Part shown: piece by piece, positions 14,317 through 39,965 of the stretch | How positions within the stretch are numbered: position 1 is the stretch's first letter | Layout: every line of letters begins with the position of its first letter | Virus record (IMG/VR): IMGVR_UViG_3300002220_003854 | Span: 23,967-87,966 of that record | DNA from: a virus | Lineage: Duplodnaviria; Caudoviricetes | Strand: one strand, 5' to 3' | Length of the DNA stretch: 64,000 bases | Translations under genes and position numbers: made by a program | Notes under the pieces: model-generated | Database searches by the model: none | Told to the model about the DNA's origin: nothing | Seen by the model: only the letters and a program-made list of their open reading frames with translations

Positions 14317-14973
14317 ATGAAAATAACTGAAATTTTAACCGAAGCACAAATGTCACCTGAGATTAAAAAAATAATGGGCGATAAAGGATACAAGTATATA
14401 TCTCGGGGTCAAGACCAAGACGTTTATCTTTCCCCGGATGGAACTATTCTAAAGATATTTGGCTGGGACCGTGATAAAGGTAGCTCTGGGTTTACTAGAG
14501 CGCAAGGAAGCTTTATAGCATTTGCAAATTATTGCAAAAAAAATCCCAACAATCAGTTCTTGCCCGACTTTAGTGACTGGGCCACATTCGAATTTGATGG
14601 TAAAACATACTTGCAGATTAAAACTGAAAGATTATTTCCACTAAGTGGCGACTGGGAATATTTGGGTAACGAGCTAGGAATCTTCGTAGATAGCTACATT
14701 GAAAGGTATGGGGCTACCGAAGGATTAAAAGTATACATAGACAAATTTGAGGGCAGCCAAATTAGAAGCAGAGATCAAGCTAGCTTGATCATAATGATGC
14801 TAGGAAAAGACGGATTAACGTTATTTGCAAAGACAGTGGATGATTTGAGCAAGATAGCTAAACAAAAAGGGTATGGCTTAGATTTGCATAGTGGCAACTT
14901 TATGTTCGGTAGCGACAGTCATTTAGTAATCAATGATCCGTTCTTTACAGGAAGCTTCAGGGGCTTAACTTAA
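14317..14973 (+). CDS. leader-bearing protein-kinase-like enzyme 1
   Basis: SRGQDQDVY loop, ILKIF, DLHSGNFM, INDPF. Confidence 0.85.
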   Translation: MKITEILTEAQMSPEIKKIMGDKGYKYISRGQDQDVYLSPDGTILKIFGWDRDKGSSGFTRAQGSFIAFANYCKKNPNNQFLPDFSDWATFEFDGKTYLQIKTERLFPLSGDWEYLGNELGIFVDSYIERYGATEGLKVYIDKFEGSQIRSRDQASLIIMMLGKDGLTLFAKTVDDLSKIAKQKGYGLDLHSGNFMFGSDSHLVINDPFFTGSFRGLT

Positions 14974-15629
14974 TGAAATCAATTGAATTCACCGAAGCGG
15001 AGTCGAAAACTAGTGCTAGCAAAGAGATTAGAAGTACATTGAGAAAAGCTGGTTATAAATTATTAGGAAGCGGTGCTGATGCCACAGTGTGGGCTAAAAA
15101 ATCAGGACCTGTCACTAAGATAATAATGCCAGACGATCACCAAGGCGCCGGCAGCGCCGGCGATACTTTTATGAAGTTTTATGAATTCTGTCTAGAAAAT
15201 CAAAACATTAGCAATTTACCCAGATTCTCAGGCAACGAGGCGTCCGTATTTCAAGCAGATGGTAAAGATTATATAATGGTAACTATGGAGAGACTTAAAC
15301 CTATACCTGAAGGAAGTTTTGAAGAAGCAATGGTATGGCAACTAAGCGACTTAGCCACAAAGCGAATGACATGGAAACAAGCATTAGAAATAGTGCGCGA
15401 CCCAAATGAATGGATGACATTCGATCATAATTCTCAAATAATTGATAGGATAAATTCAATGTCTAAGAAAGACATACTAGAATATGAAGTTTTGTTTAAA
15501 TTAATGACCTTACTTTATCATAAGGGCAAAATTAATAAAGTAGGGTGGGACTTACATACCGAGAATGCCATGATGCGTGACGATGGAACCATAGTAATAA
15601 CTGACCCATGGTTCTCATTGGTAGTTTAA
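14973..15629 (+). CDS. leader-bearing protein-kinase-like enzyme 2
   Basis: LGSGADATVW, VTKII, DLHTENAM, ITDPW. Confidence 0.85.
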   Translation: MKSIEFTEAESKTSASKEIRSTLRKAGYKLLGSGADATVWAKKSGPVTKIIMPDDHQGAGSAGDTFMKFYEFCLENQNISNLPRFSGNEASVFQADGKDYIMVTMERLKPIPEGSFEEAMVWQLSDLATKRMTWKQALEIVRDPNEWMTFDHNSQIIDRINSMSKKDILEYEVLFKLMTLLYHKGKINKVGWDLHTENAMMRDDGTIVITDPWFSLVV

Positions 15630-15634
15630 CTACA

Positions 15635-16957
15635 TTACCACTCAAACAAACTTTCTTCTGCAGTGGGCACAAATGCAGGATCTTTAGATAAGTACGTATC
15701 CTCATCTGTGTATATTACCCTGAACTTATGTTTATTAGTGAGAACACTACGAATATCATCAATGCAAATAATCTTTCGATCCAACCCAGTGATATAGTCA
15801 CATAGCTTCACTGTTGTTTCATTGCAGATTCTTGCTGTATTACTGGTAGACTTTGAAGGAGCAAAATCAGTGAAACACTTATTCCATTTATGGAAGACTT
15901 GGCTTTCTTGTTGCTTCGCGTGCTTTATAGATTCTAAGTTATACCATAACTCACTAGTGTTAAAGGCTTCATATAGTTCTAACGCCCGTGTAGCCATATC
16001 CTTCTTGGTGCAAGTGTAGAAAAAATCCTGATTAAAGTTTTTAGTCCACCGTTGATTTTCTAACACTAAAGTAGGTAACTGTATGTGTTGCTCGTGGAAA
16101 GCCATACCGTAACTTTCTACGGTGCTTGGGTTGAATCCTATCCTAGCACTAGTAATAAAATCTACTTTTTCTTTCCCTACAATACTAGCACGAACATCGT
16201 ATTGCACCCCTAGTTTTTTGAGCTTATCTTCAAACTTTTTAACGCCATTCGGGCTAGTCATGACTTTAGCAGGTAATTTTGTTTGTTCGATTAAGCTTAT
16301 AAACAAATCAGGATTCTTTCCTTCTTCCCATCTACCTATGAATAGCACGCCCTCGCGGGGTTTATGATGTTCTTCCAAAAGAAGAGATTCTGTGATTGGA
16401 ATAGGTAAATGCCATGCACCGCACAGACTAAGTTCGTTAAACTTACTCTGTGTACCAACATACATCCCACTAATTTCGAGTTGCTTTCGCATCATTTCAT
16501 TAGTTGAATCCAAGAATGGATTCTTTGTATTTTTGAAAATCTGACTTTCTAAGTGTGTATAAGCTATGATTTGAATAACATCTTCTAGTCCCATGGTACT
16601 TGCTACTTGAACTGTTTCGTATGTGTTACAGATTAGCACATCATAGATGTTATGCTCTAATGCTTCGATTATTGCATTGCGAAAGTTTGCCATTCTTTCA
16701 TAGCAGAAGGTATCACCGTACATAAAAATATTACTATGATCAGTGTACCTCAATGATTCTAACGGAGCAATAACATTTGCCTTTAGTGATTTGACAAACT
16801 CATTATCATGTGGTAGTTTATCAGTGATAATATCTACTTTGATATTGTACTTATCCATTAATTCGCAAAAGCTTTTTGCAAATTGCCCTATGCCCCCATG
16901 AGGGATGAGGGTTTGATGGCTGATCAAAAACCCAATTCTTTTGTCGTAAGTTCTCAT
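15635..16957 (-). CDS. GT-B (group 1-like) glycosyltransferase
   Basis: PHGGIGQF; LFIGRWEEGKNPDLF; STVESYGMAFHE. Confidence 0.85.
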   Translation of the reverse strand: MRTYDKRIGFLISHQTLIPHGGIGQFAKSFCELMDKYNIKVDIITDKLPHDNEFVKSLKANVIAPLESLRYTDHSNIFMYGDTFCYERMANFRNAIIEALEHNIYDVLICNTYETVQVASTMGLEDVIQIIAYTHLESQIFKNTKNPFLDSTNEMMRKQLEISGMYVGTQSKFNELSLCGAWHLPIPITESLLLEEHHKPREGVLFIGRWEEGKNPDLFISLIEQTKLPAKVMTSPNGVKKFEDKLKKLGVQYDVRASIVGKEKVDFITSARIGFNPSTVESYGMAFHEQHIQLPTLVLENQRWTKNFNQDFFYTCTKKDMATRALELYEAFNTSELWYNLESIKHAKQQESQVFHKWNKCFTDFAPSKSTSNTARICNETTVKLCDYITGLDRKIICIDDIRSVLTNKHKFRVIYTDEDTYLSKDPAFVPTAEESLFEW

Positions 16958-16961
16958 TTTG

Positions 16962-17816
16962 TTACGTATTCCATGCGTTTTTGAAAATGTCACAATGAAG
17001 TCTAGCACTATAGCGCCAGCCCTTATTCATTGCCATTTCAGCAACTTTTCTAGCATTAGAGTTATATACCTCAAAAGTACCTCCAACTGGCATCAAGTAA
17101 ATTGGACCATCAAAGCCCCTTTTCTTGTACTCATTAACCGCTTCTTCCGCTTCTTGAACATCTTCTAATGTAGAGACTACGAACTTTAGATAAACAAATC
17201 CATATAGCTTATACTGCGCAATTACCTCTGGTTTTATCGCATTATCCCAAGCTTCGCCCGATGAACTAAGTTTAGGGCTAACACTGAAAGTTAATGCATG
17301 TTTTGTTCTGTTCTTTGCCCATTCAGTAAAGAATTCCCTAGATTCACTAGTAAGCATTTGCGTTCCGTTTGTTTCAAACGTCAACTCTTGTAATGATTGC
17401 ATTTTTTCATGCGAAAGAAGACTAGGATAACTGCGTTGCCAACCCAGTAAAGGTTCGCCGCCTGTGATCACTAAATGCTCATCGCACCAACGATTGTTGG
17501 GTAGTAAATCCATGATTTTATCAGCAATAGAATCGGTGCTGAGCATAGGACTAAGATGCTTGAAACGAGGATCCCATGATGCATAGGAATCGCAACCAGT
17601 ACTGACTAGTGGTAAAGATGTATATTCTTTTATATTAGCTACGTCAATACGGTGTCTTTCGTCACTCAATTGACCTTTAGGCATTCCAAATCCACTGCAG
17701 GTGAAGTTACAACCAAATGTTCGTAAGAACACGGATGGGACTCCCATGTACCTGCCTTCTCCTTGTATTGAAAAAAAAAAAAAAAGCTCGGAGACCTTTA
17801 ACTTCGAGTTATTCAT
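16962..17816 (-). CDS. queE: 7-carboxy-7-deazaguanine synthase (radical SAM)
   Basis: SIQGEGRYMGVPSVFLRTFGCNFTC...CDS, VITGGEP, ETNGT, SPK; poly-T tract near the start. Confidence 0.92.
   Translation of the reverse strand: MNNSKLKVSELFFFFSIQGEGRYMGVPSVFLRTFGCNFTCSGFGMPKGQLSDERHRIDVANIKEYTSLPLVSTGCDSYASWDPRFKHLSPMLSTDSIADKIMDLLPNNRWCDEHLVITGGEPLLGWQRSYPSLLSHEKMQSLQELTFETNGTQMLTSESREFFTEWAKNRTKHALTFSVSPKLSSSGEAWDNAIKPEVIAQYKLYGFVYLKFVVSTLEDVQEAEEAVNEYKKRGFDGPIYLMPVGGTFEVYNSNARKVAEMAMNKGWRYSARLHCDIFKNAWNT
17771..17785 (-). repeat. 15-nt homopolymer inside the queE 5' end
   Basis: A15 on the plus strand, encoding ELFFFFS where ELFYS is usual. Confidence 0.9.
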
Positions 17817-17837
17817 TTTAAATTTTCCTTTATTAAA

Positions 17838-19148
17838 TTATTTTGCTTTATTCGCTTTGTCGAATTTGTCCAAATCTAAAATTTGGTAATGATCTTTTAC
17901 TGTAGGCCATTCGTATATATTAATGTTTTTTTGCTTGTTTGTCAACTTATTTAGGCAAGGAAATAAGAACTTTTTATTTCCTAAACCAACATAGAGTGTC
18001 TTGTCAAATTGATCTTTTGGTATTTGTTTACGTTCACCAGTCAACTTGTTAATTACGTTAACTTTTCCTTTGTTAGGTCCTACATACCTAGCGCGGTTAT
18101 TATCAAATTCTTCTTTACTTACCTGGATATATGTGTTGGTAGTTTGATCCATTACTAATCGCAAGCCTTTGGTCTGCCCAACATATTCACCAGATGAAAA
18201 CTCTTTTTTTGATACTAGTACGTTATTTCCTGCTTTGTCTTTTGCTAAGACTTTTCCCTTTGTAGCAGTGAGATACCTATTACGATCTTTGTTGTATTCT
18301 TCTTTTGTTATTTGGATTGATTGATTGGTTGTTGTATCCAACACACATAGTTTACCCTTAAGAAGATGCGAGTGTATTGAATAGTGTGTATTAGCATGAT
18401 ATTCATCCAAAGATACTATGTATTTTTCTTCTGCATCGTTTATACAAGTCACTGAATGGTTTTGTATATGTTTCAGTCTTTTGTACCCGTATTCTTTGTT
18501 CTTTGTTCTTGCTTCTGATTTAGTGATTTTTAAAATGTCGTTTGTTTCTAAATCTAGAAATTGGTATCTACATAAGTTAATATCTTTATTGCCGTGAGGA
18601 AAATCCTCAAAACTTAATCTAGACTTATACCTATCCTTGTTTTCTTGGTATTCTTTAGATGTGATATAGACCCAGGTGTTACTGTGAGTATCAAATACAT
18701 ACGTCTTTCCAGTTGTGTGAAATTTGTATTTTGTTTGATTAGCGTATTCTTCTTTAGTTAAAGTGATGATATTTCCGTTTTCATCATGCACTCTAACTTT
18801 ATTTGTGGTGTGTGCTTTAAGCTGATCATATACGTCTGTCTTTAATTTTTGATATGTTCTACTGGTAATGCGTCCTTGAAATCCTTTAAATTCTAATTTA
18901 GGATTCTTGTTATTCATCTGTAAAAATGCACTTGATATCGGCAAAAAAGATGGGTATATTTTCCATAATAACCAATGAGCTAAAAAATGTTCACGCAACG
19001 TGAGTTTAATCAAATTACCAGGATCATCGGTTCCTTTCAAACATTTAGGTTGAATGTGATGTGTCTCTGTGTACTCACTTAATTCCCTAGGTTCTAATTT
19101 TCTGATATGGTCAATGAACGCTTGATACCTTTTTTTGTAATCTACCAT
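17838..19148 (-). mobile_element. free-standing HNH homing endonuclease with C-terminal repeats
   Basis: ETHHIQPKCLKGTDDPGNLIKLTLREHFLAHWLL; repeated I-x-K-E-E-Y..GKV modules; own CTAAATA and SD. Confidence 0.75.
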
Positions 19149-19257
19149 TATCCTTCTCCCTGTAATGTATTTAGCCAAGAAAAAGGATAGTTCATTCGGT
19201 AAACTTAATATCTTTTTGCAAAATGCAATCGTTCGACTCAAAGTGAATGCTAGTGTG

Positions 19258-20436
19258 TCAATATTTCGGTGCTAATACTTGTTCCGAAATTAATTTTGCT
19301 GTGTATGGTGCTAGTGTCCAGCCTAAGTGACCGTGCCCTGTATTATAGTACACACGATTGTTTCTCTTGCTTCTACATACAATGGGCATCATGTCGGGAG
19401 TCATTGGTCTGAGGCATGCCCAACTACTGTAATCGTGTGTGTTAATTCTAGGGAAATTAGTATGAACCCATTTTACTAATGGTTCTATACGGTCTCGTCT
19501 GATATCGTAGTTTTCACCAGTTAATTCGGCAGTTCCAGCAACACGGAAACGATTGCCCAAGCTTGCAGTAACTATCTTTGCTTGGTCATCAAGTAAACTG
19601 ACTTTAGGTAAATCTTGTTCATCTACTTCATTGATAGTGATACTGTAGCCTTTTACCGGATAAATTGGTAACTTGTCACCAATTTCTTTTGCTAACTTGA
19701 CGCTACCAACACCTGCACTAACAACAATGGCATTGTATTCATCTAGGGTGTGTAAGCTAGCATTATGCCCAGTCCTAAATATGACTTTGTATTTTGCACG
19801 CAAAACTTCTGATAGTTGATAACAGAATTTATGAATGTCGCCAGTCCAATCTGAAGGAGTCCAAGCTCCACCATAAATATCGTGAATATTTCGTAGAGTA
19901 GGATCTAGTGCTAATACTTCATCAGGAGATAGTAAGTCCCATTCACATCCATTATCATTATAAATGTTCTTGGCTTTTTGCGCAGATTCCCAGTAATCCT
20001 GTGACTTATAGATATGCAAGATACCAGATTTGCTTTGATCAAAACTTAGTTTCTCTTGGTCTATCAAATCATAATATAGTTTTCGTGACTCTATTCCCAA
20101 CTGTATTGTCTTAGCCGTGTTTCTAGCATAATCGTTGTTTGCTGTATGATATAAGAACTTGGCTAGCCATACTGCTTTATCCCAATCTAAGCTTGGTCTA
20201 ATCAATAGGGGTGCATCTTTCTTTAGCATCCACTTTATACCTTTGTATACATTAGCCCATGTATTCCATACTTCGCTATTACTAACGCTTACTTGTCCTC
20301 CATTGGCGAAACTAGTACGCATTGCCGGATAGCGTTCCTGCTCATATACTGTTACTTCATATCCTTCTTTGGCTAGGTAATATGCAGTAGTTACCCCTGC
20401 AATGCCAGCACCAATAACTGCTACGTTCTGTGTCAT
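19258..20436 (-). CDS. dadA: FAD-dependent D-amino acid dehydrogenase/oxidase
   Basis: VIGAGIAG, TSFANGG, PVKGYSIT, CLRPMTPD, NTGHGHLGWT. Confidence 0.88.
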   Translation of the reverse strand: MTQNVAVIGAGIAGVTTAYYLAKEGYEVTVYEQERYPAMRTSFANGGQVSVSNSEVWNTWANVYKGIKWMLKKDAPLLIRPSLDWDKAVWLAKFLYHTANNDYARNTAKTIQLGIESRKLYYDLIDQEKLSFDQSKSGILHIYKSQDYWESAQKAKNIYNDNGCEWDLLSPDEVLALDPTLRNIHDIYGGAWTPSDWTGDIHKFCYQLSEVLRAKYKVIFRTGHNASLHTLDEYNAIVVSAGVGSVKLAKEIGDKLPIYPVKGYSITINEVDEQDLPKVSLLDDQAKIVTASLGNRFRVAGTAELTGENYDIRRDRIEPLVKWVHTNFPRINTHDYSSWACLRPMTPDMMPIVCRSKRNNRVYYNTGHGHLGWTLAPYTAKLISEQVLAPKY

Positions 20437-20472
20437 ACATTAACTCCGTTGATATTATTATTCTGTACACCG

Positions 20473-21072
20473 TCAATAGTTGAAGTAATCTTCTGTTGTG
20501 GATCCTGGTCCATACCAAACTATATATCTTTTGTGCATTGTAGATTGAATTCTAGTCAAAGATTCATTTATCGTTTCATTTGGTGGTATTGCCAACCATC
20601 GTGTGTTGGGCTTGTTATCGTAAATCATGTCTGGCGTTGCGTCAGGTATGATTTCATCAGTTTGGGTATCGTACTCTACAACATCGTATCGTTGATTATT
20701 TTTAAGTCTTAGCCAAAGATTCTTTGATCCATGGGGTCCACCTGTGTTGGTAGCGTCTGACATGACTTTCACTTTATCATTCATGATAGCATAATCATAC
20801 AAGAATGTACCGTAACCCTGACCTTTATACGCTTGGGCCAATTGAGATAAAGCTACGACCCAAATATCTTTTTTGTGTTTGTATAATGATAGGTATCCCA
20901 CCAGATTATCCTTAGGATCAAAAAGACCATAATTCAATTCTGCGCCTTCATGAGTTTTTTTCAAAGTTAAATCTTTTATCTTTGTTACCGCAACTGAGTC
21001 AGCAAATTCAAATTGGAATTTATCCAAATATTCGTCTCTAGGCGGATTAGTAATGATTTCTCCTAATTTCAT
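20473..21072 (-). CDS. GNAT-like acetyltransferase with a weak leader match
   Basis: MKLGEIIT; AYKGQGYGTFLY. Confidence 0.7.
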   Translation of the reverse strand: MKLGEIITNPPRDEYLDKFQFEFADSVAVTKIKDLTLKKTHEGAELNYGLFDPKDNLVGYLSLYKHKKDIWVVALSQLAQAYKGQGYGTFLYDYAIMNDKVKVMSDATNTGGPHGSKNLWLRLKNNQRYDVVEYDTQTDEIIPDATPDMIYDNKPNTRWLAIPPNETINESLTRIQSTMHKRYIVWYGPGSTTEDYFNY

Positions 21073-21572
21073 GCAAATAGGTCTTCATTCCATTCGCGGT
21101 GACCTTCTCTAAATGCCATGTTACTTTGTGTCTCGCGTACTTCTACGCGATAACACCATAGACGTGCTGCTTCACCGGGTCCCCACATATCTGGAATGTA
21201 AACTCCATTAACATATTTGTAAATCATGTCAGCTAAACTTTCACAACCTAAATTAGGCAAGATTGTTAGTTTCATGATGCCACGTTTTTCAGCCTCTTTG
21301 TACCAATCTAAATGTGGATCTGAACTAGCTACTAAAGTAGTGTGGTCAAATTGACTCTCTAGCGTTTGCTTTAGTTCCTTCAAGCCACCATAATCTGCTG
21401 CCCAGCGGCGTGCATCTAAATCATTAGTCCCGAAATAAAACTTCATGCTAAACGCATATCCGTGCAGAAATTGACAATGACTATCGGCTTTATACTGTCT
21501 ATAGGCACATGGAAAAGCGTTGTGATACTCTTTTGTGGAAGTCCATTTATATGTTACTGGTTGATATGTCAT
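21069..21572 (-). CDS. queD: 6-carboxy-tetrahydropterin synthase
   Basis: HCQFLHGY, FDHTTL, CESLA, EVRETQSN. Confidence 0.88.
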   Translation of the reverse strand: MTYQPVTYKWTSTKEYHNAFPCAYRQYKADSHCQFLHGYAFSMKFYFGTNDLDARRWAADYGGLKELKQTLESQFDHTTLVASSDPHLDWYKEAEKRGIMKLTILPNLGCESLADMIYKYVNGVYIPDMWGPGEAARLWCYRVEVRETQSNMAFREGHREWNEDLFA

Positions 21573-21599
21573 ATTATTCTTTCGTTATTCTAATATTGA

Positions 21600-22277
21600 T
21601 TATTCAGTAAATGATACCATTCTCATGAACTCTGCTCTGGCTGCCGGATCAGTTTTGAACCCACCACCAAGCTTAGAAGTAATAGTAGAAGCCGAGGTAT
21701 CCTCAACCCCACGGGATGACACGCATAGATGAGTAGCATCGATAACAACTGCGATGTTTTCGGTTTCTAGGATGTAGCTCAGTGCATGATAAATTTGCTC
21801 AGTAAGCCGTTCTTGAATCTGTGGACGACGACTAAAATATTCAACGATTCTCGGCATTTTGCTTAGTCCTAACACCTTTTTATTAGGCACGTAAGCTATA
21901 GTAGCTTTGCCTACGATCGGCAAAATATGGTGTTCACATAACGATTGCACAGTTATGTTTCGTTCCACAACCATTTCATCGTAGTTCATTTTATTTTCTA
22001 CTGTAGTACATTTTGGGAATGCGTCGTAATCTAGTCCCCACATGGTCTCGTTTACAAACATTCGGGCTACTCTTTTAGGAGTTTCGGCAAGTGAATCGTC
22101 TGACAAATCAAGACCAAGAACATCCATGATTTGTTTGAAACTAGCTTCAATCAGAGAGATGCGGTCTTTTCGATCCAACCCGTTATGCTTTACGGGCGTT
22201 TCTACGCCCATTTTAACTAAGTGTTCGTGTACTTTGCGACCCAGTTGTGGGTCTACTTTTTGCTTATTAAATGACAT
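21600..22277 (-). CDS. folE: GTP cyclohydrolase I
   Basis: ETPKRVARM, SLCEHHILP, GLSKMPR, RRPQIQERLT, HLCVSSRGV. Confidence 0.95.
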   Translation of the reverse strand: MSFNKQKVDPQLGRKVHEHLVKMGVETPVKHNGLDRKDRISLIEASFKQIMDVLGLDLSDDSLAETPKRVARMFVNETMWGLDYDAFPKCTTVENKMNYDEMVVERNITVQSLCEHHILPIVGKATIAYVPNKKVLGLSKMPRIVEYFSRRPQIQERLTEQIYHALSYILETENIAVVIDATHLCVSSRGVEDTSASTITSKLGGGFKTDPAARAEFMRMVSFTE

Positions 22278-22292
22278 TTTTAGAATCCTTCC

Positions 22293-23147
22293 TTAATCGG
22301 ATATGAGTTTTGAAGTGTTGTCACCGTTGTGTGACAGAATGTATTTAGTCGAATCAACTAATTCTTCTATTATTTTTTCAGTGGTATATAATGGTTCATA
22401 TCCCAACTTTGCTAGTTTATCACAAGACATGTAAAATGATACTGGCTTTTGGTCAACATCATAGGTGTATTCTACCATTGACGTAGAACCAAAGTATGTC
22501 TTCGCATGAAGTACTGCATCTTTGAATAGTATTGGCTTACTATTTCCAATATTATATATTTGATTCAGTTCTCCTTTTTCCATAACTAAATTTACTGCCC
22601 TACAAAGATCAGATGCGTGAATGTAATCTCTGTAAAAATTACCACCATTAGCTAATTGGATTGGCTGATTGTTGATTAATCGTTGCACCAAGAATGTTAA
22701 TACATTCTTTTTACTAGAAGCTTTTTTGTCTCCTGGCCCAATTACGTTTGCAAACCTAAGTATTCGATACTTTATATTAAATGTTTTGCAGTATGTAATT
22801 AACAGTTGTTCGGCTGCCCTTTTGGTAATAGAGTAGAATCCTATTGGATCACACAATGAATCTTCTGAGCCTGGGGCTGGTACATTTCCGTAGACGAACC
22901 AAGAACTTGCAAAATTAAAAGTTAAATTTTTGCCCTTGCAATTTTCTAAAACTCTAATCAAATGAGTTAGATTGGTGTCTATGTCAACATAGGGGTCAGT
23001 AAATACGTTATAATTGTCAGTGGTACTTATAAGGTACAAAACTTCGTCTGTAACCGGAACCAGTGAACTGCGGTCATTTATAACCGACGAATACATCTTA
23101 GCATAATGTGATCCAATAAATCCCGTACCCCCGAAGATGTTTACCAT
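22293..23147 (-). CDS. NAD-dependent sugar epimerase/reductase (extended SDR)
   Basis: GGTGFIGS, YSITK (YxxxK), RDYIHASD. Confidence 0.88.
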   Translation of the reverse strand: MVNIFGGTGFIGSHYAKMYSSVINDRSSLVPVTDEVLYLISTTDNYNVFTDPYVDIDTNLTHLIRVLENCKGKNLTFNFASSWFVYGNVPAPGSEDSLCDPIGFYSITKRAAEQLLITYCKTFNIKYRILRFANVIGPGDKKASSKKNVLTFLVQRLINNQPIQLANGGNFYRDYIHASDLCRAVNLVMEKGELNQIYNIGNSKPILFKDAVLHAKTYFGSTSMVEYTYDVDQKPVSFYMSCDKLAKLGYEPLYTTEKIIEELVDSTKYILSHNGDNTSKLISD

Positions 23148-26318: not shown

Positions 26319-26329
26319 TAATTAATCCT

Positions 26330-27327: not shown

Positions 27328-27330
27328 TAT

Positions 27331-30309: not shown

Positions 30310-33021
30310 TTAGCCGAACGTAAACAACTCGTCTATAGTAGTATTGGTGATTGTGTTCTGTCGAAGATCCCAATTCAACACCCCTAGCAAGTTCTCTATC
30401 TTTTCATCAATTAAAATTTTCTCCATTTCAGCATCGTCAAACGGCAATTCCTTGAACCAAGACGGCAACCGTAGTTCGTCTGTTGGATATGCGATACTAG
30501 TGAACCCTAAGGGGTTAGATCGTAACTTACACACTACAATCTTCATGCCATCAACTATTTTCATAGAGTAGTTATCACTATTAACTTTCCTCAAATAATT
30601 ATAATTTAGCGCAGCACGTACATGACCGGGCATATTAGCCTTTCCAGTCTGACTCTTTAGTTCTTTTTCACCATAACTGGTTAGATTATTAACTGACTTA
30701 GGTGAACCCTTAGTCCAAGAATCTTGCTCAGTTAGAACTCGTTTAAATTCCTTGATCTGTTCGATGATATCTTCTCTGGTGTTTCCAGCTAATACTCTTT
30801 CTAGGATATTCATCAAAAAGTCTTGTACTTGTTTGGGAGTGTCTGCGCGCTTTAGGTCTAGACCCATTGCTTTGATTTTACCTTGTTTGCCATCAACGTC
30901 TAATCTTTTACCCTCTTTATCAAAGATATTGATTGCATAACGCTTGCGCACAATAAAGATTGCTCTGTCACCAATTAATTCTCTACCTGCTTTAATGATG
31001 GATCCGTTTTTTCTAGGAGCATGAAATGCGCGTTCCATAAAAGCAGGAAAGCTAGCATTTGCTTGCTCTGCAATAGTATCGTAAATTTGCACGCAAATTT
31101 CTTTATTCCAATCTAGGTCGCCAGCTTTTATTTGTTCCTGTAAAGCAGGATATGCGGTAAAATAACAACTATCAGTATCTGAGTAAATCACTGCCGGTCC
31201 TTCATGATTATAATCACCGGTGATAATCTCATTGATTTGGCTATTCATGTGTTTAACAATTTGCCTACCTGACAACGTTACTGATTGACCGATACGCTTG
31301 TCATAAAATCTACAATGTTCGTTTAACAATGCACCGTATGCAGAATTAAGCAAAATTTTTCGCACTAATTGTCGCTTATCCCAGTACTCTTTATCAGCAT
31401 CGGTTTTCGCTTCTCTTAGATTCTGTTGCATTACTTTACGACCAGAATACCACTTAGATAATAGTCCTGGAATTACTCCTTCTTGCTCATACGTAAAGAT
31501 GGTGCCGTTTGCACTCAGCATCCATGGCTTATGGCTATCAAAGATCAATTTCCAGATTTCTGCCGCGGACATTTCTACGCTACGACCATCTTCATAGTCT
31601 ATAGTTAGAATTGTACCGCGCTCTTGATTTATAATAGCAGTGTATTCTAAACTACCGAATAACCCGGCCCATAGAATACTACCAGTTACTTCGTCCGAAA
31701 CATCTTTACGCCTTTTCTTTTCACTTGCAAGTTTTCTACCCTTGTCATGCATGTATTGATTTGTTAGGGTTTGTCTGACTTGCCCGACAATGGTTTCTGG
31801 GGCCATGTTAAGAGCGCGGATAGCTGACGGGTATAGACTGTTGATGTCAACTGCCCCGACGTACTCGTGGATGCCCCTTTTGGGAGTAGCAACATAGGCA
31901 CCTGCCGCTTGCTGTTCGTCATTCTTCACTTCCTTTCGTTTTTTATCCGGAACTATTAAACCTCGCTCATGTGCTTCGTTCATAATTGCCATTTCAATCA
32001 TGGCAACTGAACCCATTACTGTAGGCAGTAATACTGTATTTTCATGCGCGAGAGCATTTGCAAGATCCAAAAACTTTAACTTGTTGTGGATCTTGACTAA
32101 GAGCATGGTATCTTGTCTATTATAGACAACAAACTTCATAAAGTCTTTGTTGTAAAGTTGGTCTAGTGTACCTTCATATTGAGTTTTATTTTCCCCCACT
32201 TCCATTTCACCAATAGAGTCTAGTTTATACGAATGCCTAGATTCATAGTTATACTTTTTATAAAGTTGCAAATAGTCCATATGAACTCTACCTACTAGAT
32301 CGTAAGTAGTTTCTTCTTTACCGAAACGTTCGTATGTTCTAGCCTTTGGTAATTGTCCAAGCAAACAAAACTTACGAGTATCATCCTTACTCATTATTCT
32401 AGTGACACGGTTAACCATATATGGTATATCGTATCCTTCAGAGTTCCAACCAGTCAATACATCTGCATCCTCAATAAGTTGAAAAAATGTCTCAAGCATT
32501 GCCACTTCATCACGAAACAATATAGTGTTTGGCAATTCTTTGATAAGATCATTTGCAGTTTCGTCTGTCATTCCATGTGGAGGAATTACTAAGGTAACCA
32601 GTTGATCTAGCCAATCTAGGTATAAACTAATCGCTGTAATTTTATTGAATGGGTCACTGGTCGGGCTAAATCCTTTTTCAGGGTTAAAATCAACTTCGAT
32701 GTCAAGGAAGCATGTATGTAGTTTTGGGGAGTCAACACCTAAGTAATTCTCACTTAAGCACCTGAATATAGGATTCACATCACTCTCAAACAACTTCTTA
32801 GATGAGTGAATCCTTTTCTCTTTTTCGAACTCGCTACGCTTACGTGTACTAAACCTAGATACGGTATCTCCGTAAATACTACGATATTTGCCTTTCGGGT
32901 CAGAGTAATACAAAGTATAGTTAGCTGGATATTCTTTATATGTTCGCTTGCCGTCAGGCGTTCTTTCTACGACATAGATACGGTCGCTGTCTTTATCTAA
33001 TACTGCATCAATATAACTCAA
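30310..33021 (-). CDS. polB: family B DNA polymerase
   Basis: DIEVD exonuclease, WNSEGYDIPY, DINSLYPS, KILLNSAYG, YSDTDS, KRY. Confidence 0.97.
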   Translation of the reverse strand: MSYIDAVLDKDSDRIYVVERTPDGKRTYKEYPANYTLYYSDPKGKYRSIYGDTVSRFSTRKRSEFEKEKRIHSSKKLFESDVNPIFRCLSENYLGVDSPKLHTCFLDIEVDFNPEKGFSPTSDPFNKITAISLYLDWLDQLVTLVIPPHGMTDETANDLIKELPNTILFRDEVAMLETFFQLIEDADVLTGWNSEGYDIPYMVNRVTRIMSKDDTRKFCLLGQLPKARTYERFGKEETTYDLVGRVHMDYLQLYKKYNYESRHSYKLDSIGEMEVGENKTQYEGTLDQLYNKDFMKFVVYNRQDTMLLVKIHNKLKFLDLANALAHENTVLLPTVMGSVAMIEMAIMNEAHERGLIVPDKKRKEVKNDEQQAAGAYVATPKRGIHEYVGAVDINSLYPSAIRALNMAPETIVGQVRQTLTNQYMHDKGRKLASEKKRRKDVSDEVTGSILWAGLFGSLEYTAIINQERGTILTIDYEDGRSVEMSAAEIWKLIFDSHKPWMLSANGTIFTYEQEGVIPGLLSKWYSGRKVMQQNLREAKTDADKEYWDKRQLVRKILLNSAYGALLNEHCRFYDKRIGQSVTLSGRQIVKHMNSQINEIITGDYNHEGPAVIYSDTDSCYFTAYPALQEQIKAGDLDWNKEICVQIYDTIAEQANASFPAFMERAFHAPRKNGSIIKAGRELIGDRAIFIVRKRYAINIFDKEGKRLDVDGKQGKIKAMGLDLKRADTPKQVQDFLMNILERVLAGNTREDIIEQIKEFKRVLTEQDSWTKGSPKSVNNLTSYGEKELKSQTGKANMPGHVRAALNYNYLRKVNSDNYSMKIVDGMKIVVCKLRSNPLGFTSIAYPTDELRLPSWFKELPFDDAEMEKILIDEKIENLLGVLNWDLRQNTITNTTIDELFTFG

Positions 33022-34230: not shown

Positions 34231-34611
34231 TCAATTAATGGTAAACTCTTTGTCCGGAGTATAAAAGTTTGGTTTACGCATGATAGTTTTAGCAACCAAT
34301 TCTTTGTGATTGGCTCTATCTTTGATGACGAACGGCAAGTTAATCTTAGTCAATAAATCTTTCATCACGGCCTCTGGATCATCCATAGATGCAATCTTTT
34401 TACCGTTACGCTCATATTCTTTTTTGAATAACCGAATTAGTTCTGCCGCTGTTATAGGCTTGCCGTTTCTTTCGTCATTTACTCTTTCTAAGAAATGTTT
34501 AGAGAAGTTAACATCGACTCCCAATGATTTCCATAAGCTATCAGCGAACCTTTCCACTTGGGCTAGTTCACTAAAGGATATTTCTTCTTTCATAAATTCT
34601 TTTGCTCTCAT
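34231..34611 (-). CDS. leader-bearing small protein
   Basis: MRAKEFMKEE; FSKHFLERVNDERN. Confidence 0.75.
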   Translation of the reverse strand: MRAKEFMKEEISFSELAQVERFADSLWKSLGVDVNFSKHFLERVNDERNGKPITAAELIRLFKKEYERNGKKIASMDDPEAVMKDLLTKINLPFVIKDRANHKELVAKTIMRKPNFYTPDKEFTIN

Positions 34612-35738
34612 TGGAATATGTTCCTATTCTGTTTGCCGTATATTTTTATAAGTTTTCCAGCTACCATGTCAGCTAATAATTCTATTGGACTGCCTGGATA
34701 ACTACTACCGGGTTTTATCATATCTAATTCACCCTGCCTAACATGAGTTAATTCATGTGCTACAGTTCGTAGTATATCGACTAAATTTCTATTTTTAGCA
34801 TAAACCCAAATTTTGTCATCACCCACTGTATGCCCGCCAGTATGATGATTTGTTCTCGCTTCGACAGTGTCCATACTCAATACCACTTTGGGTTGTGTCT
34901 GTAAGTTTAGCTTAGAAGATGCCCAATTCGTAAATTTCTCTACTTCTTTTTGTAAATTAGAGTGGGTTGTATTTTCTTTTAACAACTTTGTCCCCACATT
35001 GAAATTATCGGGCTTGATTAATGCAATATACGATAGCGTTTTCTCTAACTCATTGCTGTTATTAAACATCAAGGTGTTTATCAAATCGTTACCTAGCTCA
35101 GTTGTACTAAACTCATACTTATCCGGGAACACAGTTCCGTCATCAAATTCAATTTGCTTAACGCCGGCGTCGTCGTGAACAACGTTTACTATAGTTTTTG
35201 GATTTTTAAATCCCCTGCAAATCACTGTACGAGAATAAATGTCTGCAATAATTTGCAATATACAGATCGATGAACCAACTTTGATATTGGCGACATTAGA
35301 ATTTGATATTTTTTTAAGTTGGGAATAAAAAGAAGTTAATTCGTCATTAACATCTTCATTCAGAGTATCTAATAGGTTGTTAGTCCATTCAGTGACTACA
35401 TTTATTTTAGGAGTTCCATAATACTCTCTAGTTAGTCGAGAATAAAATTCTCTGATTTCAGAAATATTGTTGTCCTTGCCTGTTCTTTTTAGTCGAGGTT
35501 TTTTTATGTCATTAGAAGTAAATGAGGTTTCATCTAGTTTATTCTTTATCCAGTGATCTGGTGTGTTTTTGTACTTTTTAACAAACAAGTCATGCAATGC
35601 TTTACCGGTGATATCATGTTTAGCTGCTATTTTTTGCATCAACCGGTCAATAGTATTGTAGTCATGTTTTTTCAGACTAGGTAATTTTGTTGCTAATTCA
35701 CTAGCAGCAGATTCTAAAATAAATTCAGTTGACTTCAT
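34608..35738 (-). CDS. leader-bearing multidomain protein with C-terminal HExxH motif
   Basis: MKSTEFILES; LRTVAHELTHVRQ; ATAAATA just upstream. Confidence 0.75.
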   Translation of the reverse strand: MKSTEFILESAASELATKLPSLKKHDYNTIDRLMQKIAAKHDITGKALHDLFVKKYKNTPDHWIKNKLDETSFTSNDIKKPRLKRTGKDNNISEIREFYSRLTREYYGTPKINVVTEWTNNLLDTLNEDVNDELTSFYSQLKKISNSNVANIKVGSSICILQIIADIYSRTVICRGFKNPKTIVNVVHDDAGVKQIEFDDGTVFPDKYEFSTTELGNDLINTLMFNNSNELEKTLSYIALIKPDNFNVGTKLLKENTTHSNLQKEVEKFTNWASSKLNLQTQPKVVLSMDTVEARTNHHTGGHTVGDDKIWVYAKNRNLVDILRTVAHELTHVRQGELDMIKPGSSYPGSPIELLADMVAGKLIKIYGKQNRNIFQ

Positions 35739-35767
35739 AGTTATATTTATCACCAGTGCTTATGTTT

Positions 35768-36199
35768 TCAGCACCAAGACTTTTTTGCTTCGCCGAAGTA
35801 AGGTCTAGCTAATCCACGTTGAATTAATAATCCACGTAAGCTTTTTCCGTCTAATATAACGTCACCCAATACTCTTCCGCCGTATTTGTCCCATCCCATA
35901 AGCATTATCTGACGATGCTGTGCGCTTGCAATCATTTGAGTTGTAAATTGCGTAGCTTGTTTTCCCTTTTCTGCTTCTAATGCACATTTAGCTTTGGCTC
36001 CTTTTTCAGGGGTATCCACTCCGTAGATTCTAAGTGCTAGTTCTGATTTCAACGGAGAAGGTAAAAATTCAGCTTTAAATGCTACTGTATCACCGTCTAT
36101 TACTCTAGTGATAGGATAGTTGTATAATACACCTGACGGATCCGCGAACACAGATGTAGATAGAAATAGCAAAAAGATAATTAGTTTTTTCATAATCAT
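35768..36199 (-). CDS. thermonuclease (SNase-like) with signal peptide
   Basis: RVIDGDT, LRIYGVDTPE, DKYGGRVLG. Confidence 0.9.
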   Translation of the reverse strand: MIMKKLIIFLLFLSTSVFADPSGVLYNYPITRVIDGDTVAFKAEFLPSPLKSELALRIYGVDTPEKGAKAKCALEAEKGKQATQFTTQMIASAQHRQIMLMGWDKYGGRVLGDVILDGKSLRGLLIQRGLARPYFGEAKKSWC

Positions 36200-36209
36200 G
36201 ACAATAAAA

Positions 36210-36283
36210 GGCTCACTTTAGAGGTTAGAGTAGCGAGTTCTTCCCTCAAGCCAGCAGCCGGCTATTCGGTCCTAAGCGAATTC
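36210..36283 (-). ncRNA. candidate structured RNA in the nuclease 5' leader
   Basis: Closing stem TTCGCTTAG/CTAAAGTGAG enclosing hairpin AGCC-GGCTGCT-GGCT; GC-rich island downstream of ATAAATA. Confidence 0.45.
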
Positions 36284-36301
36284 ATCCAATGATTATATTT
36301 A

Positions 36302-36721
36302 TCAACTGATTTTTACTTTCTGCAATACATTACTAATTAATGTAAACTGGTTAGCTAACTTTTTATAGAACAGTTCAGGTGGTCTGCTAGTCCAAGCCCT
36401 ATGCTCTAACGCTATTTTTCCCATATCGATATAGTAGTTTTTACTTGGCCAACGACGACTATTCAATGCTAAGCCGTCGATCAATAAACATTCTTCTGCT
36501 ATTTCTTGAAAATGCTGTTTTCTAATTTCACCTGATTTGTTTGTAGCTGCTAGCATTCTAATTGCTATAGTATCGGCTGGAATGTTTGGATTTTCCATAT
36601 ATTTGGCAAACGTATGGACCACGAATGCTTCTACTTCATGTTCTAAATTTATGCTAGCTTTACACTCTGCTTCAAGTATTACCTCGTAACTATATTTCAC
36701 ATAGGTTAAAAAATGTTTCAT
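36302..36721 (-). CDS. hypothetical protein
   Basis: 139 aa ORF. Confidence 0.7.
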   Translation of the reverse strand: MKHFLTYVKYSYEVILEAECKASINLEHEVEAFVVHTFAKYMENPNIPADTIAIRMLAATNKSGEIRKQHFQEIAEECLLIDGLALNSRRWPSKNYYIDMGKIALEHRAWTSRPPELFYKKLANQFTLISNVLQKVKIS

Positions 36722-36750
36722 AGACTTAGCAATCAGTAGAGAGTGGCATC

Positions 36751-37623
36751 TTACATTAAGAATATCTGGCCAACACTGCTAGCCAATACATCATCGAACA
36801 TCAATTCCATGTCTCTGGCAAGCATCTCACTGGCATTATTGCGTTCACTTTCGTCTCTGAATTCAGGTTTGATATTCATGTATTTTGTGGGAGTGCCCCA
36901 TGCTTTACGTCCATAACCTAAATTAGTAGGTAATGAGTTAAATGTAACTTTGCCAGTACCTAAATATTGTGCAAATATTTCATATAAGAATTCATATGGT
37001 CTTTTTATATCGTTGCTGCGGCTACTACGTTGTGTACCGATAGCATTGAATAATGCATTATACTCTGGTGTTAGGTCAAATTGCATTGATCCCTGTGATT
37101 GAAAACCGCCCCGTCTTTGTGATATTTTACCGTAAAATTCTGCTAGAGTATTATTTACTGCATTGAAGAAATGTTTTTCGGCTTCAGTCCAGGCATGCCA
37201 CTTTGCGTTTTTTCTCGCGCCTGCTTGTATGGCATGCCCAAATCTATGCGCCATCATCCAGGGCGTTAGCATTACTTTTCTATCGCCCTGGTTTCCTACA
37301 TATACTACAGTAATAGCATCTTCACTTCCGTTAACTATTTCTGATGCTTGATCTCCGAATATTTTTGTAACCTGATCCGGGGTCATTGGTCCATATTCAC
37401 TATATTTACCGGTGCCGGGAACATTGCTGAAGAACAAGCGAAAATCATAAGGAGTTTGTTCAAAAAACTTAGTAGCCTTTTCTATATTTTTAGGATGCGG
37501 TACTAACTTTTTATCAGGGCCACGAAATGGACCAGGTTTGGTAAAGTCGCCAAACGTCTTATAAGTCGATAACGCCATTTCATCGACATTACTCATCTCT
37601 TTTATAAATTCAGTTGATTTCAT
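36751..37623 (-). CDS. leader-bearing protein with HxxxH metal-binding motif
   Basis: MKSTEFIKEM; TPWMMAHRFGHAI; EFLYEIFAQY. Confidence 0.7.
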   Translation of the reverse strand: MKSTEFIKEMSNVDEMALSTYKTFGDFTKPGPFRGPDKKLVPHPKNIEKATKFFEQTPYDFRLFFSNVPGTGKYSEYGPMTPDQVTKIFGDQASEIVNGSEDAITVVYVGNQGDRKVMLTPWMMAHRFGHAIQAGARKNAKWHAWTEAEKHFFNAVNNTLAEFYGKISQRRGGFQSQGSMQFDLTPEYNALFNAIGTQRSSRSNDIKRPYEFLYEIFAQYLGTGKVTFNSLPTNLGYGRKAWGTPTKYMNIKPEFRDESERNNASEMLARDMELMFDDVLASSVGQIFLM

Positions 37624-39299
37624 GTTATAACCCTATACCCAAATCCTGCGGGACTAGATCGTCCGATTCTAGTCAAGAAACTATTAAATCCTAGCCGAGC
37701 ACTTTCTTGATCGTTTGCCCTAGCTATAAAAGTACCAAGACTTGTGTTAGGGTCAGATACTAAATAAACTTCGTATCTTTGATTGCCTGCGCCTGCGGTA
37801 TTAGTTGGAGCAACTTCTGGTTGAGTTATACCTTTGCGTTTTTCTTGGGCAGTTCTGATCAAGCTAATTAGTTGTGCTTTTGGTAGCTCGCCGGCAGCAT
37901 AATTTGCAAAGTATGCAAGAATGTCATTGTTAGATTTTGGTTGTAATAATACATATAGTTTCTTTAAATAATCTTTGCGAAACTTATTCGGATCGCATGC
38001 TGCGTCTAATGCAACTACAAATCTCAACAATGTGTTTTCTAATTTAGATATGTCTTCATCTAACCAATTGCCGCCTGGACTACGAAATTCTACATAACCA
38101 TCATGCGTATTAATGCTAGTATATTTGTCCGTCATACCAGTATGAATCAATTTAGAAGCCAACACCGACAGGCCTGATTTCATTTTATCTAAAACTTCGC
38201 CGACTCTGGCTGGGTTGTTACTTATGAACGTACCAATCTTTTGTGCCGCACTTTTAGCGTATGCATTACCCATTCTGTTATACTGATCTAATACGTACTC
38301 GTCACCTAATAACAACGCTAACTTTACGTAATCTAACTTTTCTATTGAGAAATTAGGTACGCTTACATTCATATGTAATCCAGTAGATTCGTTAGTATAA
38401 CAACCCTTGTCTTTAGCCCAAGCTACGATCTTGTTTAAGTCGATTAACATCGCATCAATGGGCAAGGGCGGGCTGACGAATTCTAATCCACCATCATTAC
38501 TCTCGTCCGGGTCAAGACTGCTATCTGGTTCAATGACATATTGATCAGGCTTTCGTTCTGCTCCATGATATGTTGTCGAATATTCTACTTTACGACCTAT
38601 CGCTGTACTGAATTCGTTTGCTACGGTTTTGACATCTAACTCCATATCACCCTGAGGAGAAGTCCAATGTGGCCAAATTAAATCATACTGGGATTCTACA
38701 TCCTGCATAGAATTTATGCCTTGGTCTCGTAACCAATCTGTTTCAGAAGGCTCCTCTACACTTTCTCGCCATGAGTCGTAAGCTCTATTGTACAGCCGAC
38801 CTTGATCTTCCCATTCACTGTCGAGCCATTCTTCTTTTAGTTCCTCAACTCTTTTTTGCACCTTCTCGTCGTCAGGGTCTGTTATCTCTAATTCTTCCAT
38901 GGCTGTTTCAATGGCGTCTTCTTCGTCAAAGTAATCTTCTACGTATTCGTTAAATTCATCTCGTCCTTCTGAATTCCATTGTTCAACTATTTGCTCTTCC
39001 GCCCATTCTTGATATTCGTTCTCCAGGTCTCTTATCACCCGCCGCACTGCACTTGAGCTATTATACTCCCCTGCGAAAAAATTATAAATATCGGCAAAAT
39101 CTACTACTCGTTCGTCTTGATCGTAATCGCGTTCTTGGTCAACATCTTCGTCTTCAATTGCTATGTCAGGAACAATCATTTCAAATTCCATACCAGCTAA
39201 TGCATTAGTTTGTGCGGCAAGTTTTCTTAGGTTACTAGGACTCATTACTACTTCGTCTAGTAACTGCGGGGTTTCAATGACAAATTCTTTAAATCGCAT
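37620..39299 (-). CDS. leader-bearing putative amidoligase (COOH-NH2 ligase) with acidic insert
   Basis: MRFKEFVIET; GMEFE, EPDSSL, GLEFVSPPL, STGLHMNVS, KYTSIN, VEFRSPGG. Confidence 0.8.
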   Translation of the reverse strand: MRFKEFVIETPQLLDEVVMSPSNLRKLAAQTNALAGMEFEMIVPDIAIEDEDVDQERDYDQDERVVDFADIYNFFAGEYNSSSAVRRVIRDLENEYQEWAEEQIVEQWNSEGRDEFNEYVEDYFDEEDAIETAMEELEITDPDDEKVQKRVEELKEEWLDSEWEDQGRLYNRAYDSWRESVEEPSETDWLRDQGINSMQDVESQYDLIWPHWTSPQGDMELDVKTVANEFSTAIGRKVEYSTTYHGAERKPDQYVIEPDSSLDPDESNDGGLEFVSPPLPIDAMLIDLNKIVAWAKDKGCYTNESTGLHMNVSVPNFSIEKLDYVKLALLLGDEYVLDQYNRMGNAYAKSAAQKIGTFISNNPARVGEVLDKMKSGLSVLASKLIHTGMTDKYTSINTHDGYVEFRSPGGNWLDEDISKLENTLLRFVVALDAACDPNKFRKDYLKKLYVLLQPKSNNDILAYFANYAAGELPKAQLISLIRTAQEKRKGITQPEVAPTNTAGAGNQRYEVYLVSDPNTSLGTFIARANDQESARLGFNSFLTRIGRSSPAGFGYRVIT

Positions 39300-39314
39300 A
39301 TGGCTTAACTTTTA

Positions 39315-39965
39315 TCATGATCCGTCACCTGCATAGAACGGATCACTGATTACAATATGTCCGTCGCTACCTAGCATGAAGTTACCACTGTGTAAATCTA
39401 AATACCTTAATCCTAGCTTTTTGCCTAATTTCATTAAATCATAAATAGTATCCCATAGCATGTTAAGCCCATCTTCGCCTAAATGCATGACCAATTGCTC
39501 AGTTTCTTTAGAAGTATAGGCTCTTGCCATGAGGTCAGATAAGAATTTTTTTCTATCATCAGGAGTCGCAAAGCGTTCAGCGCGATCAGCAATCACTGAT
39601 AATACCTCATTCCACCCGGCTGCAGCACCTGTAAAAGGAAACAATCTTTCCATTTTAATCTGCAGATAAGTTCGACCATTGAACTGAAACGTTGCCCAAT
39701 CTGTAAAGTTTGGCAGAAATGGATTGGTTGGATGAGCGAGACAGTAATCTGCGTAAGCTTTAAATATTTTCTGACTTTTTGTAAGTTGTGACACTCCCCC
39801 ACCAGACTGACGACTTGAACCAAATATCTTCAATATCATTCCGTCTGGGGCTAGATATGCAGCTTGATCAACGCCACTGCTCAAATATTTATATCCTTTG
39901 TCTACTAAAATCTTCTTGATATCAGGATCCATATAAGATTCTAATAATATTTCTTGAATTTTCAT
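39315..39965 (-). CDS. leader-bearing protein-kinase-like enzyme 3
   Basis: MKIQEILLES; SSGVDQAAY, ILKIF, DLHSGNFM, ISDPF; paralog of 14317. Confidence 0.85.
   Translation of the reverse strand: MKIQEILLESYMDPDIKKILVDKGYKYLSSGVDQAAYLAPDGMILKIFGSSRQSGGGVSQLTKSQKIFKAYADYCLAHPTNPFLPNFTDWATFQFNGRTYLQIKMERLFPFTGAAAGWNEVLSVIADRAERFATPDDRKKFLSDLMARAYTSKETEQLVMHLGEDGLNMLWDTIYDLMKLGKKLGLRYLDLHSGNFMLGSDGHIVISDPFYAGDGS

Follow-up and report, generated by a model that had tools for sequence, protein, structure and literature searches.

Three kinase genes on a jumbo-phage fragment

The viral DNA considered here (64,000 nucleotides, hereafter the window) corresponds to bases 23967-87966 of an 87,966-base IMG/VR virus record, IMGVR_UViG_3300002220_003854, and carries three related open reading frames (ORFs) for very small predicted protein kinases, designated K1, K2 and K3. 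K1 (14317..14973, plus strand) encodes a 218-residue protein, assigned below as a minimal member of the kinase family of bacteriophage T7 gp0.7 (T7K). K2 (14973..15629, plus strand), whose start shares one base with the stop of K1, specifies a divergent paralog, also of 218 residues, and K3 (39315..39965, minus strand) a near paralog of K1 with 216 residues. K1 and K3 are 50% identical across 215 residues (E 2e-71); K2 is more distant, with 30% of its residues matching K1 (E 3e-20) and 27% matching K3 (E 1e-17). Each protein starts with a short leader peptide: MKITEILTE in K1 (residues 1-9, encoded by 14317..14343 on the plus strand, with a predicted cut after E9), MKSIEFTE in K2 (predicted cut before AESKT) and MKIQEILLE in K3. 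The first-pass annotation of this DNA had described three ORFs of these lengths (216-218 residues) and coordinates, a pair of close paralogs at 14317 and 39315 on opposite strands, and a leader on every one of them. All of this was recovered exactly, save that the K2 leader is one residue shorter than those of K1 and K3.

The completeness of the record is about 25% according to CheckV. The DNA polymerase of the window (30310-33021, minus strand) is 48% identical to that of Sinorhizobium phage Phosso, 47% to that of Agrobacterium phage Atu_ph07 and 43% to those of the Rak2-like phages GAP32, CBB and 121Q. Against uncultured records of 321-425 kb the identity reaches 65% (G003), 60% (G001 and G002) and 56% (G005). 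Because of these identities, the source DNA is assigned to an uncultured jumbo phage of the T4 superfamily, of which it is a fragment. Megablast of positions 13000-17000 against deposited phages gave zero matches.

All three kinases match PHROG 15752 ('protein kinase; inhibitor of host transcription'), with E-values of 1.1e-7, 6.4e-13 and 1.2e-8, and the match covers nearly the full length of K2 and K3. T7 gp0.7 itself, as given in the T7 record, is a member of PHROG 2828 that matches PHROG 15752 as well (1.7e-46). A family profile built from 27 sequences was aligned by hhalign with the kinase that the T7-like Enterobacter phage EP1 encodes at the gp0.7 position (95.9% probability, E 6e-9), with the annotated kinase of the Salmonella jumbo phage Munch (97.3%, E 2e-11) and, over the N-lobe only, with T7 gp0.7 (78.7%). 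The T7 motifs GFKMLGNG, VIKV, AFC, DMHSGNIMF and ITDPV correspond one to one to GYKYISRG, ILKI, NYC, DLHSGNFMF and INDPF of K1. The motifs that the first-pass annotation had pointed out (Gly loop, beta3 Lys, DLHxxN and D-P-aromatic) are genuine and conserved in the family alignment. In K1 they are represented by G31/D33 in the Gly loop, K46 in beta3, the catalytic loop D189-L-H-S-G-N194 and D207-P-F; K2 has DLHTEN, then DPW, and K3 DLHSGN, then DPF. Invariant across the 27 sequences are G24, Y25, G31, D33, G42, K46, I47, C73, L82, Y98, E104 and R105, as well as D189, L190, H191, N194, M196, V204, D207 and P208, and the residue after D207-P208 is F or W in the family and V in T7. The ATP-binding lysine, the catalytic aspartate, the metal-binding asparagine and the DFG-equivalent aspartate are therefore retained in K1-K3.

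T7K is an experimentally proven and very promiscuous Ser/Thr/Tyr kinase, which broadly phosphorylates host proteins and disarms defences (PMC13645617). In view of this, of the PHROG, hhalign and motif homology, and of the fact that the T7 and EP1 domains too end soon after DP, K1-K3 are classed by sequence as members of the T7K kinase-domain family, so that the kinship with gp0.7 proposed earlier stands, every catalytic motif being intact. Their activity on proteins is predicted from this membership. None of the three reaches the cut-off of any Pfam or NCBIfam family, Pkinase and APH included; the profile of the polyvalent-protein kinases, PF18762, matches K1 in the Gly loop alone, at 12.9 bits (E 0.11; cut-off 27), and K2 and K3 not at all. 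Searched with the K2 sequence, the PDB returned noise only, and tblastn found a single T7-like kinase (E 8e-4) and no other match.

The AlphaFold model of K1, built on the family alignment, has a mean predicted local distance difference test score (pLDDT) of 87.3 and a predicted template modelling (TM) score of 0.83 (pTM). Foldseek against the PDB retrieved protein-kinase-like folds only (PknB, APH(2''), FN3K, VRK2 and a lanthipeptide-synthetase kinase), with APH(2'') and FN3K beside PknB at similar E-values. VIA-align placed eukaryote-type protein kinases at the top, Mps1 first (Z 9.8), followed by SRPK1 (9.5), then CDKL1, MARK and PKR, in alignments spanning residues 18 to about 212 of the model, which is to say the N-lobe of the targets through their DFG position. 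The closest viral predicted structures are proteins of uncultured phages, one of which (412 residues, TM 0.71) is annotated with a domain of the N-acetyltransferase superfamily (NAT_SF); T7-like 'protein kinase' entries and a RaK2 protein come next. The chain stops at the DFG-equivalent (residue 212 of 218), with neither an activation segment nor helices F to I, and the complete C-lobe of Hanks-type kinases (activation segment, APE motif, helices F to I) is absent from the model and the alignments. The three proteins end about 10 residues past DP[F/W] and have no shut-off (SO) domain. The second lobe of the model is made of three long helices (111-184) that precede the catalytic loop. This helical lobe is the least conserved region family-wide: between K1 and K3, identity is 60% for the N-lobe and 71% for the stretch that starts with the catalytic loop and ends at DPF, but only 27% for the helical lobe (residues 106-184). 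Such divergence hints that the three kinase copies might have diversified for different targets.

The leader and its predicted cleavage site

The leaders of K1-K3 conform to M-[KR]-x-x-E-[FI]-x(1-2)-E and resemble MKTYQEFIAE, the capsid targeting sequence of T4, with which both ipII and ipIII start in the T4 record. They terminate in L-T-E (K1), F-T-E (K2) and L-L-E (K3), in keeping with a gp21-type (I/L)-x-E site. In T4, the ten residues of the leader are enough to bring foreign proteins into the head; targeting depends on positions 4 and 7, and cleavage by gp21, an S77 protease that works inside proheads, on positions 8 and 10 (I-x-E) (PMC9026906).

Searched in all six frames for M-[KR]-x-x-[EQ]-[FILMV]-x(1-3)-E with an open stretch of 60 codons or more behind it, the 88-kb record gave 13 matches. 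Twelve lie at ORF starts, at most 25 codons from the upstream in-frame stop. The remaining one, at 15171 (MKFYEFCLE), was rejected as a leader, being internal to K2 and aligned with the helix that follows the beta3 strand in the K1 model. Together with an ORF that starts with GTG at 13828 (MRITEFVTE), the twelve ATG genes bring the leader genes of the record to 13. Two tight same-strand strings, 11216-15629 (plus) and 34231-43117 (minus), hold 11 of the 12 ATG leader ORFs as well as the GTG one; the twelfth ATG ORF is upstream of the window. At the DNA level, a degenerate leader pattern occurs 10 times in the contig and 0 times in the reversed control, well above chance, and it is found 6-9 times in each of the complete relatives G001-G003 and twice in G005; the strict pattern is only marginally enriched in five cultured phages (0-4 occurrences, against 0-2 in the control).

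The leader codons vary (AAA, AGA, CGA; GAA, GAG), which argues for selection on the peptide. An origin as a recombination cassette was discarded since the leaders differ in codons, and so was a Sec or Tat signal, the leader being acidic and amphipathic, not hydrophobic. Residues 1-8 are the sole stretch of the K1 model with a pLDDT below 50, and this low-confidence, unstructured segment is for that reason placed outside the fold. The bodies that follow the leaders are mutually unrelated; they comprise a GP88-domain protein, one with a weak GNAT match, one with a near-threshold DUF6934 match, the kinases, and several of unknown family.

Homologues of the kinases give a view of how the leader is used elsewhere. 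The K1 type is represented by 69 clusters, metagenomic throughout, most of which have the leader at residue 1. The K2 type is larger (447 representatives at the 50% identity level), and its kinase is often the C-terminal domain of a longer protein; among the best 150 of these 447, the strict leader stands at the start of 71, multidomain fusions included. Thus P0073 is organized as leader, Zeta-toxin-like P-loop domain and kinase, and P0132 (1349 residues) as NTase, NT5C, kinase and DUF6934, the last just under the Pfam cut-off. In P0005, one N-terminal leader precedes a homologue of the window ORF 34231-34611 (69% identity) that is fused with a kinase of the K1 type (65%); the two modules are separate genes in the window, with one leader each. 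The leader therefore belongs to the polypeptide and not to the domain.

The junctions that precede the kinase domain in these fusions read ELDE/AES, ELVE/AEA, EIEE/AES, IIE/AEE, VDE/AEE, VAE/AEV and similar (the slash marks the boundary). In homologues with a recognisable Gly-loop anchor (n=177), the motif [ILVMF]-x-E-[AGS] was counted 8-26 residues ahead of that anchor: it is present in 106 of the 177, compared with 7.0% of control windows, and it keeps a constant spacing from the anchor, of 14 residues in the K1 type (65 cases) or 18 in the K2 type (31 cases). The junction motif is the cut rule of T4 gp21. This suggests that the kinase domain is freed at the same point, whether it stands behind a leader or behind another domain. 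The kinases of Munch and T7 have neither the leader nor the hydrophobic-x-Glu/Ala boundary. Taken together, these data support the view that the leader behaves as a T4-type capsid-targeting and cleavage signal and is an independent N-terminal module.

Components of a T4-type head are encoded by the relatives. A Peptidase_S77 gene was found in four of five related records (E ~1e-27), and a Gp23-type capsid gene in all three that were tested. In G003, the head module is ordered portal, acidic 275-residue protein (223721-224548), protease, scaffold and capsid protein. The acidic protein starts with MNKFEQLIE and lies between the portal and the prohead protease, so that a core- or scaffold-associated protein has a leader-like N-terminus. 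The G003 scaffold contains 25 hydrophobic-x-Glu sites, and LLE, LLE and ILE sites are present at the N-terminus of its capsid protein. The leader genes of G003, a kinase-containing protein of 1087 residues and a Dps-like gene adjoin the DNA polymerase, as in the window.

Virion data are available for Atu_ph07, a phage with a 490-kb genome (MF403008.1), whose published virion list (Table S5 of PMC6102473) has 140 entries among 714 ORFs; entries were assigned to ORFs by molecular weight and map position. The pattern ^M[KR]xx[EQD][LIFMV]x(1-2)E, which K1, K2 and K3 all fit, selects 23 Atu_ph07 ORFs. Nineteen of them are in the virion proteome, compared with the baseline of 140/714 (hypergeometric p = 5.5e-11), a value that overstates independence because 11 of the 19 are in one contiguous block, gp53-gp63. 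Of the 12 leader ORFs outside this block, 8 likewise belong to the virion proteome. The block itself (41820-50592) consists of eleven consecutive genes with products mostly of about 29-31 kDa that start with M[KR]W.QL.E or a near variant; all eleven products are in the published virion proteome, and their shared N-terminus passes without comment in the Atu_ph07 paper (PMC6102473). The same phage encodes a homologue of gp21, gp204. The earlier idea that the leader is a tag of the packaging type has thus gained substance, from its portability as an N-terminal module, from a cut site that bounds the kinase domain and from the enrichment of leader ORFs in the Atu_ph07 virion.

The other genes of the two clusters may be described briefly. 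Directly upstream of K1, and part of its closely packed gene string, are three leader ORFs on the plus strand: 11216-13012 with the GP88 domain, 13014-13826 with the weak, sub-threshold GNAT match, and 13828-14307, the GTG-started gene, with the DUF6934 match, which at 26.6 bits falls just short of the cut-off of 27. On the minus strand, the K3 cluster has leader ORFs at 34231-34611, 34608-35738, 36751-37623, 37620-39299, 39315-39965 (K3), 40408-42186 and 42188-43117. Untagged ORFs are interspersed at 35768-36199, 36302-36721 and 39965-40405, also on the minus strand. The first of these encodes a staphylococcal-nuclease-like protein (Pfam SNase, E 6e-10; PHROG 452, endonuclease) with a hydrophobic, signal-peptide-like start, MIMKKLIIFLLFLSTSVFA, and no leader; the nuclease may be periplasmic or secreted from the cell. 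The last, directly upstream of K3, is a leaderless Dps/ferritin-like gene (Pfam Ferritin, E 1e-15; PHROG 3636). A homologous-looking Dps-like gene follows the leader cluster of G003 (74602-75003); with such a gene beside leader clusters in both phages, the neighbourhood is considered conserved.

Two leader proteins, 11216-13012 (plus) and 40408-42186 (minus), share a module of about 200 residues (37% identity, E 3e-37), which occupies residues 49-249 of one protein and 286-488 of its partner; the differing positions point to module shuffling among cargo proteins. Beyond the K3 cluster, 43161-44267 (minus) encodes an untagged protein of 368 residues (DUF5661, PHROG 36119) that starts with MDIKTLESFKMSDAIKFH. 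The same N-terminus heads kinase-containing proteins of 1087-1519 residues in relatives (G003 67037-70300, P0132 and P0186), and hence a long protein of this kind may be split into separate genes in the window phage. Between the two leader clusters, the minus-strand region 15635-29150 includes a radical-SAM, QueE-like ORF (16962-17816).

Proposed delivery in the capsid and its alternatives

We propose, with moderate confidence, that K1-K3 are leader-tagged, minimal Ser/Thr(/Tyr) kinases of the T7K family that are probably packaged in the head, cleaved, injected and active on host proteins. The kinases would be made as proenzymes with a T4-type capsid targeting leader of 8-9 residues, which would dock them into the prohead's scaffolding core; the protease of the prohead would then cut the leader off behind Glu8 or Glu9. 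Once matured to about 24 kDa, the kinases would remain in the DNA-filled head, be ejected with the genome and phosphorylate host proteins ahead of any phage gene expression. The most plausible effect would be to blunt defence systems and redirect host machinery, as T7K does, and the helical-lobe differences among the three copies may alter substrate range or regulation.

A broader proposal, offered tentatively and one that may or may not hold, is that an uncultured jumbo-phage clade delivers ready-made T7K-type kinases in its capsid. They would be the first virion-injected protein kinases of phages, and within seconds of the entry of the DNA the three diverged copies would blanket-phosphorylate the machinery of defence and expression in the host. 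The leader and the hydrophobic-x-Glu/Ala junction would then form a code that predicts the whole set of injected enzymes.

Should the kinases be borne by the capsid, counter-defence would precede phage gene expression, with a timing logic unlike that of T7, whose kinase disarms many bacterial defences via mass phosphorylation, as shown in 2026 (PMC13645617). They would also be a kinase counterpart of the injected ADP-ribosyltransferase of T4, Alt. In addition, the leader and junction rule would provide a simple sequence test for injected proteins of uncultured T4-type giant phages, and the short leader could serve as a tool to load enzymes into phage heads.

Several observations weigh against delivery of active protein kinases from the head. 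Neither an S77 protease nor a Gp23 capsid gene is present in the 88-kb fragment, which amounts to about 25% of the genome. The T4 late-promoter motif TATAAATA is at chance frequency (9 occurrences, against an expectation of 8.9) and does not occur ahead of the leader clusters, and scans of both clusters for sigma-70 promoters and terminators remained at shuffle level. An exact TATAAATA does exist at 58659-58666 (minus), in a short gap just upstream of a 427-residue ORF (57357-58640) in a tail- or fibre-looking region. The kinase of Munch starts with MTKQEIFKH and is leaderless, has no hydrophobic-x-Glu/Ala boundary and lies amid small early-type ORFs; packaging is therefore not a trait of the family. 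The family profile found no kinase in any of the five cultured phages in which the strict leader pattern was counted (Phosso, Atu_ph07, XaC1, GAP32 and Vibrio phage 2.275.O). The virion leader proteins of Atu_ph07 include no kinase, its genome has no homologue of this family, and the leader ORFs of that phage are clustered as described above. A hyperpromiscuous kinase made late, with the structural proteins, might harm assembly unless held inactive. Finally, the small-molecule kinases APH(2'') and FN3K are near the top of the Foldseek ranking.

A first alternative is that K1-K3 are active T7K-type kinases that are not packaged and act only in the infected cell after ordinary expression. The leader would in that case be a common translation or stability element, or a silencing propeptide cut by a cytoplasmic phage protease. 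T7K and the Munch-type jumbo-phage kinase are indeed untagged and in early-gene positions, no late promoter was found for the leader clusters, and the contig is without head genes. We nevertheless judge this explanation unlikely. The leader is very close to the T4 capsid targeting sequence, and its pattern predicts virion presence in Atu_ph07 for 19 of 23 ORFs. Moreover, the site of action of the T4 S77 protease is the prohead interior (PMC9026906), and variation at the codon level argues for selection on the peptide rather than on the RNA.

A second alternative accepts packaging and directs the kinases at phage components. While the head is being assembled, or soon after ejection, they would phosphorylate scaffold, internal proteins or the cargo packaged with them, for instance so as to switch on or set free other leader-tagged enzymes. 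The kinases are embedded among leader-tagged genes and are fused to such modules in relatives, and T7K phosphorylates phage proteins too (PMC13645617). Such a role has no precedent, however, the supply of ATP in a sealed capsid is doubtful, and host proteins are the main substrates of the closest characterised relative (PMC13645617), so that we find it improbable, and prefer injected kinases that act on the host. Finally, that K1-K3 are not protein kinases at all, and instead phosphotransferases of the APH/CotS/FN3K type acting on small molecules or nucleic acids, perhaps tied to DNA-modification genes between the clusters, would agree with the presence of APH(2''), FN3K, APH(9) and YtaA among the top solved Foldseek matches, with the loss of the C-lobe that eukaryotic protein kinases use for peptide binding, and with deazaguanine and sugar genes at ~15.6-29 kb, yet it is very improbable given the specific sequence homology to T7K, a proven protein kinase of the same truncated architecture, the precedence of protein kinases in the VIA ranking, the T7-like kinases among the viral fold neighbours and the position of K1-K3 outside the modification operon.

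Comparison with known systems

T7 gp0.7 and its relatives in the Autographiviridae share with K1-K3 the Gly loop G-[YF]-K-x-L-G-x-G, the beta3 Lys, F-x-x-C in the helix that follows, D-[LM]-H-S-G-N-[FI]-M and I-[NTS]-D-P, as well as a domain end soon after DP. K1-K3 differ from T7K in having no C-terminal shut-off/DNA-binding domain and in carrying DPF or DPW instead of DPV. They also differ in setting: here there are three leader-tagged paralogs in a jumbo phage of the T4 superfamily, whereas T7K is untagged and encoded in the early region, at the left end, of a podophage genome of 40 kb. Homologues of T7K in jumbo phages (Munch, which infects Salmonella, and G17, a phage of Escherichia) have already been published; their function was called unknown and packaging went unmentioned, and they were reported to have no shut-off domain and to have the Val of DPV absent or less conserved (PMC13645617). 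Like K1-K3, the Munch and G17 kinases are stand-alone proteins, of about 213 residues, without a shut-off domain, and come from phages of about 350 kb. The shut-off domain is a feature of the Autographiviridae subgroup, not of the kinase domain family.

As regards the leader, the counterparts are the T4 internal proteins IPI-III and Alt, unrelated proteins that carry, like K1-K3, a short N-terminal M-K-...-E-F-I-x-E peptide ending in (I/L)-x-E. T4 packages and injects Alt besides its capsid-targeted internal proteins (PMC9026906), and Alt is the example of a packaged and injected enzyme that modifies host proteins. The leader of K1-K3 has the same E-F-I-x-E core as that of T4 and is one or two residues shorter. 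In T4, replacing the last leader residue, Glu, by Asp stops cleavage yet still permits loading. The cargo here would consist of kinases and some ten other proteins, while that of T4 consists of small basic proteins; packaging is shown in T4 and predicted here.

A separate lineage of kinases without a C-lobe was described in polyvalent proteins, predicted to be injected, by Iyer et al. 2017 (PMC5512222). These kinases (PF18762) resemble K1-K3 in being protein-kinase domains without the C-terminal subdomain and in their predicted delivery with the phage DNA. In addition, relatives of K2 sit in multidomain proteins with Zeta-toxin-like P-loop, NTase, NT5C and DUF6934 modules, which resemble polyvalent proteins. 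K1-K3 differ in belonging to the T7K-like lineage, and in a predicted route that involves a T4-type leader and a prohead protease, not MuF-type polyvalent proteins. A search of the literature found no paper that joins a capsid targeting sequence with a kinase. What is new is narrow but real, namely a kinase lineage of the T7K type, here in three copies, that bears a T4-type loading tag and cut site.

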